From positions 1 through 29,067 of the IMG/VR virus record IMGVR_UViG_3300010935_000101: a DNA stretch of 29,067 nt; one strand, 5' to 3'. Shown here piece by piece: positions 4,308-26,458 of this stretch. Source of the stretch: a virus. Numbering within the stretch: the stretch's first letter is position 1; every line of letters starts with the position of its first letter. The translations under genes and the position numbers were made by a program. A model generated the notes under the pieces. The model was not told where the DNA came from and did not search any database. It saw only the letters and a list, made by a program, of their open reading frames with translations.

Positions 4308-4365
4308 ATATGCTTACAATAGGCTGGAGATTAGCAGATTAACAAATTTCTCATACTCACCTTGA
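4258..4365 (+). CDS. possible 35-aa ORF
   Basis: AAAGGAACAAC-ATG context identical to that of the 26828 gene; MTQMIIPVGQQVNVENKYAYNRLEISRLTNFSYSP. Confidence 0.35.
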   Translation: MTQMIIPVGQQVNVENKYAYNRLEISRLTNFSYSP

Positions 4366-4367
4366 GT

Positions 4368-4910
4368 ATAACTGGCGTTCTAGTAATCACATCGTACGAT
4401 AACGAATCCTAAGCGTGGCTTGAGAACTACACAGCCTAACACTAGTAGATAACCCTGTGGATTTAAACTTGCAAAGGGAGAAGCTCGGAGAAAACCCAAG
4501 CACACATGGTTCAGCTTACAGGACCAACACAATATGTAAGTAGCTTGTTTATGGGCTTAAGCCACAATGTCAAATGGCAATTGCGTGGTATGTAAACTAG
4601 GGAACTACCTGAGCCAAAACTACGGGATAGTATCGGGTTTGGCCACTCGTTAGCCGAAGGGCAAATAAATACACAAAATCAGTATAGTTAACTGACGTAT
4701 ACCTATGTGTGAATTGTAGGCAGGTCTGGTATAAGCTACCCATCCTATAAAATGAACAAGCTAGCAGAGACTAACTACCTCTGTACAGTAAACTGCCGTA
4801 AGAAGTTTGCCAGCGATAGTATCAACGGATTTAAACCCGGCACCACACCTCCATGAAGTCAAGACATAAGTATCTTAGTATACTATAGCCAGTTATCTGA
4901 AAGAGGTGTG
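4368..4910 (+). ncRNA. candidate large structured ncRNA (~530-540 nt)
   Basis: terminal helix ATAACTGGC(4368-76)/GCCAGTTAT(4888-96) continued by TAGTA/TACTA; many internal helices; no long ORF; strand inferred from G-U pairs and the flanking genes. Confidence 0.6.
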
Positions 4911-4919
4911 ACTTTATAT

Positions 4920-4995
4920 GTCAAGGATGCATGTGTACACATGGTAGTAATAGGAACAGTCCCCTATGCGGTTCGAATCCGCTCCTTGACCACCA
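4920..4995 (+). ncRNA. tRNA-like element (non-canonical, no assignable anticodon)
   Basis: GTCAAGGA/TCCTTGAC acceptor, GCGG-TTCGAAT-CCGC T arm, ends in ACCA. Confidence 0.7.
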
Positions 4996-4998
4996 TTT

Positions 4999-5126
4999 TA
5001 AGTCTTCGATGAGCACACATTGAAGACAGAGTTAAAACCACTCTGCAGGACTGAGGTTCTTAAAAGAAGTCCTTAATCCAGTTTTACTAGGAAGTGTAAC
5101 CGGACATGTGTGTTCTTCGAAGCTTA
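4999..5126 (+). ncRNA. multibranch structured RNA with a ~20-bp closing stem
   Basis: 4999-5020 pairs with 5106-5126; internal hairpins CAGAGT/ACTCTG and AGGACT/AGTCCT. Confidence 0.55.
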
Positions 5127-5322
5127 TCACTTCAAATGGTTAGCCTAACCGCTAGCCTGCTCTGGTATTATGTAAGCAATACTCGTACCCCGATCCACGA
5201 GAGAGATCGGTACCTTGGTGGTACAAAGGCAATCAAACCACACCCTATGAAACCGATGGTCGAGACAGTTACAGGGTTACGAAACTGTGAACCAGCCCAG
5301 CGATGATAAGCTGGGATACTTA

Positions 5323-5381
5323 TGTTGTAGTGTGGGCACATCTGGAGACCCCAGACGCCAGTTCGATTCTGGAATATGACA
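5323..5381 (+). ncRNA. miniature tRNA-like element
   Basis: TGTTGTA/TATGACA acceptor-like stem, TCTGG/CCAGA arm, CCAG-TTCGATT-CTGG T arm. Confidence 0.55.
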
Positions 5382-5422: not shown

Positions 5423-5508
5423 ATGAACTACCTATCTAGGTCGATAGAGCATCTCCTAACTGAACATTTGGAGTTAGCCTTCAGGTTCGAATCCTGAGTA
5501 GTTCATCA
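5423..5508 (+). ncRNA. tRNA-like element, possibly a diverged tRNA-Phe(GAA)
   Basis: ATGAACTAC/GTAGTTCAT acceptor, CTATC/GATAG D-like arm, CT-GAA-CA loop, TCAGG-TTCGAAT-CCTGA T arm. Confidence 0.6.
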
Positions 5509-12635: not shown

Positions 12636-13077
12636 CAGCGAATCACTACTACAAATTACAACAGTTGCTATGATTCGTGAGCTTTACCCGGACTTGGTGA
12701 TGAATCTATCCCTTAATGGGATTTCCCTTAATGGTTTATCAATTGCTCAACGAGCACAACTTATTGCTCAAGCAAAGAAGGAAGGCATGGAGACCGGAGT
12801 TCAAGATTTATCTATTTACTTACCTAATTCCCAAGTACTTAACCTGGAATTCAAACGTCCTAAAGGTGGTTCACAATCACCTGACCAAGTTATTATTGAA
12901 GACAAACTCAAAGCAATGGGACATAACTACCACTTAATTAGGGACTCTTACCAAGTATTTTTCCTAATTGCACAACTAACACCCACTTATTATCGCTTAG
13001 CAGCGTTCAGCCAATTGGATAAAGCAATAATTACCAAATTTGGTAATGATTTATTATTCAAACTTTACAATTTATAA
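12628..13077 (+). CDS. VRR-NUC family nuclease (possible Holliday junction resolvase)
   Basis: G...GVxDL...LEFK..KG.QS..Q......L...G motif. Confidence 0.8.
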   Translation: MSNSESLLQITTVAMIRELYPDLVMNLSLNGISLNGLSIAQRAQLIAQAKKEGMETGVQDLSIYLPNSQVLNLEFKRPKGGSQSPDQVIIEDKLKAMGHNYHLIRDSYQVFFLIAQLTPTYYRLAAFSQLDKAIITKFGNDLLFKLYNL

Positions 13078-26369: not shown

Positions 26370-26458
26370 AGTGTGTTGGCTGAGTTGGCTTAAGGCAGCA
26401 GATTGCTAATTTGTCGAGTGTAACAGCTCCGAGGGTTCGAATCCCTCACACACTGCCA
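26370..26458 (+). tRNA. tRNA-Ser(GCT)
   Basis: AGTGTGT/ACACACT acceptor, discriminator G, encoded CCA, anticodon loop TT-GCT-AA, long variable arm, GAGGG-TTCGAAT-CCCTC T arm. Confidence 0.92.

Follow-up and report, generated by a model that had tools for sequence, protein, structure and literature searches.

The window analysed here is a stretch of 29,067 nucleotides at the start of a 96.8-kb record of an uncultured phage (IMG/VR record IMGVR_UViG_3300010935_000101). The phage carries genes for a family A polymerase, a helicase, a primase, an AAA ATPase and very large virion proteins. Its closest cultured phages are the Alteromonas AD45 phages, with a polymerase identity of about 29%; an assignment to the crAss-like phages was not supported. 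Gene density is high across the window except between positions 4308 and 5793 of the plus strand, where 1.5 kb of higher G+C content hold no credible open reading frames. This RNA island contains, all on the plus strand, a conserved RNA termed motif A (4844-4910), a leader (4911-4919), a second conserved RNA termed motif B (5113-5317) and three tRNA-like elements (4920-4995, 5324-5381 and 5425-5505). The genome has four plus-strand T arms, of which three are located in the island (T loops at 4972, 5362 and 5486) and the fourth belongs to a tRNA-Ser at 26370. ARAGORN and Rfam called only the tRNA-Ser and none of the island elements, which are three non-decoding folds without a working tRNA among them. 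A scan for promoters and terminators gave matches at chance level only, and no consensus promoter scored above chance.

The element at 4920-4995 consists of a body (4920-4990) and a 3' tail (4991-4995). Its acceptor is formed by eight Watson-Crick pairs (4920-4927/4983-4990) with pair probabilities of 0.87 to 1.0, the eighth pair, A4927-U4983, having a probability of 0.87. The T arm (4968-4982) has a stem of 4 bp (4968-4971/4979-4982) and a canonical 7-nt loop (4972-4978). The 8-bp acceptor, 4-bp T stem and perfect T loop reported in the first-pass annotation of this DNA could thus be read and folded at these positions, and the 14-nt palindrome reported for the D-arm position was found at 4930-4943 as a hairpin of 5 bp with a 4-nt loop lacking G18G19. 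An alternative reading of acceptor and T stem is a 7/5 division with a U-U pair. The minimum free energy of the element is -24.7 kcal/mol (z -2.4), and the fold persists in a context of 300 nt. The island has two T loops on a Watson-Crick stack of 12 bp, compared to none in 5000 dinucleotide shuffles; 0.01 are expected per shuffled genome. Modelling indicates that the tRNA-shaped fold is real and unable to read a codon. The other two folds of the island, at 5324-5381 and at 5425-5505 (7/5 stack), have no CCA.

The 12-bp acceptor/T stack and the T loop are those of a canonical tRNA. Absent at 4920-4995 are a 5-bp anticodon stem with a 7-nt loop and U33, an N73-CCA adjoining the acceptor and a D loop with G18G19. 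The second arm (4950-4967), a new helix of 5 bp (4950-4954/4963-4967), had been described as an arm in the anticodon position. Its 8-nt loop without U33 was confirmed; however, the distance from the D-position hairpin to the arm is 6 nt instead of 1, and the arm borders on the T stem, which rules it out as a true anticodon arm. As it directly abuts the T stem, there is no variable region, in agreement with the earlier description. The 3' tail consists of C73, an A and then CCA (4993-4995). CCA is therefore encoded, as had been noted, but it is shifted by one base relative to the 12-bp stack, because the stack ends at 4990, C4991 takes position 73 and U4919 cannot pair with C4991.

No usable anticodon is present, although a vestigial UAG that the first-pass annotation had missed is found at 4951-4953 in the register of a tRNA-Leu, buried in the 5' strand of the second arm, which pairs with 4963-4967. 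When the interior of the element was compared with 448 tRNAs, leaving out acceptor and T arm, the two best matches were both tRNA-Leu(UAG), with scores of 30 and 28, and the next score was 24; a score of 30 was reached by 6 of 300 shuffles (p ~0.02). The acceptor stem is common to two phage Leu(UAG) genes, and the palindrome at 4930-4943 aligns to the D loop and the 3' strand of the D stem of tRNA-Leu(UAG). These similarities suggest that the ancestor was probably a phage tRNA-Leu(UAG). The 8/4 division looks like a one-base repartition of the 7/5 Leu stack: after U4967 entered the new helix, an extra A4927 would have paired with U4983, restoring exactly 12 bp.

That the element still works as an unusual tRNA-Leu(UAG) of the allo-tRNA type is hardly credible. 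ARAGORN, for which the first-pass annotation had expected a pseudo or undetermined result, made no call at 4920-4995 and returned Leu(tag) at a lowered threshold, and tRNAs with an 8/4 division can translate (PMC5389517). The Leu(tag) reading, however, requires a 2-bp anticodon stem plus mismatches and places A at both positions 32 and 33; this Leu-type stem has a pair probability of 0.0 and costs 12 kcal/mol relative to the minimum free energy fold, and there is no long V arm. In allo-tRNAs the V arm is long, the anticodon stem, which carries an anticodon, is long as well, and the discriminator is G73 or U73, a SerRS identity element (Mukai et al., PMC5389517). Some of them and of the 8/4 tRNA-Ser and tRNA-His occur in phages, and some are not used in translation (PMC5389517). 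The 12-bp acceptor branch split 8/4, one of the two divisions (8/4 or 9/3) that mark this class, is common to both, but the earlier analogy failed in all other respects, since the element has neither long V arm nor anticodon arm and carries C73 (C4991) instead of G73 or U73.

An orthologue of the element was found neither by exact pattern, blastn and nhmmer nor in 16 related virus records. Related phages were gathered by means of the ATPase and a gene of 133 amino acids, and contained 29 non-decoding tRNA-like folds and 17 ordinary tRNAs; these lists are hand-curated, and some entries are orthologous and not phylogenetically independent. Most of the non-decoding elements have a 7/5 stack, so that the 8/4 stack is untypical. 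As a class they keep the acceptor/T stack and have lost the anticodon arm. Because the class had originally been found through its top halves, relics were ascertained again by the D arm alone. The top half was intact and the anticodon arm lost in 13 cases (0.6 expected by chance; about 10 cases without one duplicate and doubtful matches), while the reverse was seen in 10 cases (11.8 expected). On this count, the decay of tRNAs in the clade is one-sided. The proposal that the top half, and not decoding, is under selection thus gained support from the 12-bp stack beyond chance as well as from the lopsided decay. For the element at 4920-4995 itself we infer selection from its class and from the restored 12-bp stack, as no orthologue was found.

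The same data bear on a neutrally decaying tRNA-Leu(UAG) pseudogene without present function. The relics of tRNA-Leu(UAG), the missing orthologue and the fast turnover of phage tRNA genes in the clade would fit such a history. On the other hand, the inner half has been heavily rebuilt, yet all 12 pairs of the stack are Watson-Crick pairs and the inserted A4927 restores the twelfth of them, and decay in the clade is one-sided; a pseudogene is accordingly very improbable. The first-pass annotation had named ordinary tRNA homologues with merely random decay as the finding that would count against it. The ancestor was indeed probably an ordinary tRNA-Leu(UAG), but the decay in the clade is not random.

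The bases preceding the elements were also characteristic. U-1 was present in 25 of the 29 non-decoding elements, A-2/U-1 in 21 of 29 (background 0.11) and G+1 in 27 of 29. The element at 4920-4995 carries A4918, U4919 and G4920, and its leader (4911-4919) is U-rich and single-stranded and ends with A(-2) and U(-1) before G(+1), which gives a predicted RNase P site at 4919/4920. U-1, A-2 and G+1 are preferences of bacterial RNase P, and acceptor/T-stem hairpins are tolerated as substrates by this enzyme (PMC4919922; PMC6582537). In the same region (4902-4947) an AUG at 4918, preceded at 9 nt by a purine run that resembles a ribosome-binding site and is part of the closing helix of motif A, opens a frame of 9 codons; this frame has 5 codons in the related phage L343 and is not conserved.

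In contrast to the leader bases, an in-register CCA was retained in only 5 of the 29 non-decoding elements, compared to 16 of the 17 ordinary tRNAs (13 of 17 as scored automatically, Fisher p 1e-4, and 16 after three one-base register corrections). This bears on the possibility of a trans-acting decoy, in which the excised RNA would mislead a protein that binds tRNAs, such as a synthetase, EF-Tu, or a toxin or defence nuclease directed against tRNAs, and the position in the island would serve only the release of the RNA. In accordance with this, stack and T loop are intact and CCA is encoded at 4920-4995, non-decoding elements are more numerous in the clade than real tRNAs (29 versus 17), and such elements are common in unrelated viral contigs, where they are sometimes solitary. 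In addition, the pair of elements in L083 and L146 keeps an arm with a 4-nt loop, the stems of which have changed in a compensatory manner and still pair. A decoy nevertheless appears unlikely. The acceptor sequences are not conserved, and the acceptor stem shared with mimics of other phages was not special in comparison with control stems. Bait for an anticodon nuclease would need a loop, and at 4920-4995 this loop is buried. The aminoacylation or EF-Tu decoy considered in the first-pass annotation is weakened by the loss of in-register CCA in the clade and by the shifted CCA of the element itself.

Motif A is about 65 to 67 nt long and ends 9 nt before the element at 4920-4995. Two copies only are available; the second, in L343 (12585-12650, E 8e-5), shares two invariant blocks, and its helices have changed but still pair. 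Seven nucleotides after this copy lies a tRNA-like fold of 111 nt that is unrelated in sequence (922 of 1000 shuffles scored as well). Both elements behind motif A have a perfect 14-nt palindrome with a self-complementary loop (4930-4943 and, in L343, approximately 12716-12729) and a pyrimidine at position 73, which may be chance. Motif B, about 200 nt long, has no Rfam match and ends in a conserved hairpin. It was found in four phages (5113-5317 in the window, L343 12906-13112, L157 1615-1819 and L102 17054-17266), and the tRNA-like top half behind it differs from copy to copy. A conserved RNA of about 105 nt, motif D, is absent from the window and present in L083 (3431-3537), L166 (10153-10258) and L348 (13917-14022); it is followed by an unrelated mimic in L083, by a tRNA-Ala with broken anticodon in L166 and, where the contig of L348 ends, by the start of what resembles an ordinary tRNA-Ala. 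Motif F is represented by its terminal hairpin in five phages, with three kinds of follower.

Taken over motifs A, B, D and F, all 14 copies have a tRNA or tRNA-like fold 4 to 9 nt behind them (21 nt in one case), with mostly U-rich spacers. The chance of such a follower is about 0.065 per copy, and about 2e-5 for the whole when one event per family is counted. No tRNA-like fold follows Gm, a further conserved RNA motif of the clade. Most copies of motif E (about 55 nt; L083 3646-3700, L081 14836-14890, L343 13404-13460, L116 11439, L123 16807 and G002 11133) start directly 3' of a tRNA-like fold. Since the slot is conserved while its occupant changes, the arrangement fits the prediction of a cleavage mark and not that of a sequence-specific decoy.

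The tight and constant spacing to the upstream motif would also be expected if the fold were left in place, forming the 3' domain within a longer RNA, with motif A carrying a tRNA-like cap that shields it from exonucleases. Protection is a role proposed for the tRNA module of YrlA RNA (PMC4201824), and a D loop without GG together with a shifted CCA could mean a poor substrate for RNase P. But the same slot is filled in L348 by an apparently ordinary tRNA, which would be cut, and the leader has retained the bases that RNase P reads, which makes an attached domain quite unlikely.

We therefore favour, with a probability of about 0.6, the reading of the element at 4920-4995 as a predicted RNase P/RNase Z punctuation signal in a long phage RNA. 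A processing signal was among the options listed in the first-pass annotation, and it is supported by the followers of all 14 conserved RNA copies and by the RNase P leader bases, cleavage itself being a prediction. According to this reading, a phage tRNA gene, most likely for tRNA-Leu(UAG), would have lost its anticodon arm and been retained to mark a site of processing within a long non-coding transcript. The whole island would be transcribed as one precursor, in which the RNase P of the host would measure the 12-bp acceptor/T stack and cut at 4919/4920, possibly one base further upstream because of the shifted 3' RCCA. This cut would set the 3' end of the motif A RNA. RNase Z or another 3' nuclease would cut after about position 4991 and free the downstream RNA, and the excised RNA of 72 to 76 nt would not decode. 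The missing GG in the D loop and the off-register RCCA may weaken or shift cleavage by RNase P.

The closest parallels to such a punctuation signal are found in organelles and eukaryotes. The t-elements of plant mitochondria (Forner et al. 2007, PMC1920247), which RNase P and RNase Z cleave, are likewise non-decoding tRNA-like folds with a canonical T arm, and their ends are the ends of the neighbouring RNAs. Similarly, mascRNA and menRNA are small tRNA-like folds behind the conserved non-coding RNAs MALAT1 and MEN-beta, the 3' ends of which they set through RNase P (PMC4919922). The phage element shares with both the non-decoding fold with T arm and acceptor stack; its position at the end of a functional RNA is indicated by conservation only, in the 14 of 14 copies. 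It differs from t-elements in that it belongs to a phage with a bacterial host, lies between non-coding RNAs, is swapped for other folds among relatives and has a predicted cleavage. The mascRNA and menRNA system is eukaryotic with one conserved element per long non-coding RNA, whereas many unrelated tRNA relics form a tandem array in these phages.

Among bacterial RNAs, YrlA Y RNAs (PMC4201824, Rfam RF02553) are also non-decoding tRNA mimics with a T arm and can be RNase P substrates, but they are permuted, have an Rsr-binding stem and lie beside rsr, while the fold at 4920-4995 is colinear. An Rfam search with the element gave no match up to E 1. An identity as Ro60/Y RNA was rejected, as the fold is colinear and no TROVE gene was matched in the genome, although the positive control was. 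A tmRNA tRNA-like domain was likewise rejected, the element having C3-G70 instead of the G3-U70 that, together with a tag reading frame, marks such a domain, and no tmRNA was called. RNAC and RNAD of phage T4 sit among tRNA genes. Like these two, GOLLD RNA, which is located among phage tRNA genes (PMC6582537), is a stable phage RNA the function of which is not known (PMC9697503, PMC6582537); the neighbours of all three are working tRNAs, whereas the island holds relics only. In a limited literature search, no direct description of anticodon-less tRNA-like RNAs or of this slot layout in phages was found.

On its own the element at 4920-4995 is modest, and the notable part is the pattern of an interchangeable slot together with the uncatalogued RNAs that it delimits. 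It is possible, though on the doubtful side, that a rule of tRNA punctuation governs operons of undescribed small RNAs in the clade, with any relic able to occupy the slot. The relics would then be interchangeable, unannotated parts, the positions of which mark the boundaries of several new RNA families. In its boldest form, this reading would have the released anticodon-less RNAs act as decoys against tRNA-targeting defences as well. If the rule holds, the principle of tRNA punctuation known from mitochondria and MALAT1 would extend to operons of non-coding RNAs in phages, and the many tRNAs of pseudo or undetermined type that phage genomes retain would be explained by the use of their ends and not of their anticodons. 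As a practical rule, an uncatalogued RNA should be sought 4 to 9 bases upstream of a tRNA relic, as illustrated by the four families described here.

Several further observations were made in the island and in other contigs. No CCA-adding enzyme was found in the phage. A gene for 530 amino acids lies within the RNA island of L343 (10866-12458) and had no match in Pfam, PHROGs or the ESM Atlas. In the window, the strands of a 10-bp long-range helix (5014-5023/5105-5114) are complementary over 6 to 7 bases to the halves of the palindrome at 4930-4943; alternative pairing between them, seen post hoc, is possible. The acceptor-stem pattern of 4920-4995 was detected in 6 anticodon-less lineages of unrelated viral contigs, but a family defined by its seven-pair acceptor stem was rejected, as two control stems gave comparable numbers (1-2 and 4-5 lineages). 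Anticodon-less tRNA-like genes, often solitary, were present in the unrelated contigs L231, L203, L213, L194, L201, L216, L249, L253 and L258. The 1 to 6 lineages per acceptor stem tested suggest a large unannotated class in viral contigs. Two tRNA-like RNAs of the related phages (L083 3895-4015 and L116 11084-11178) have two T arms in one fold, and group I introns were identified by Rfam in two others (L102 1916-2148 and L157 6269-6607).
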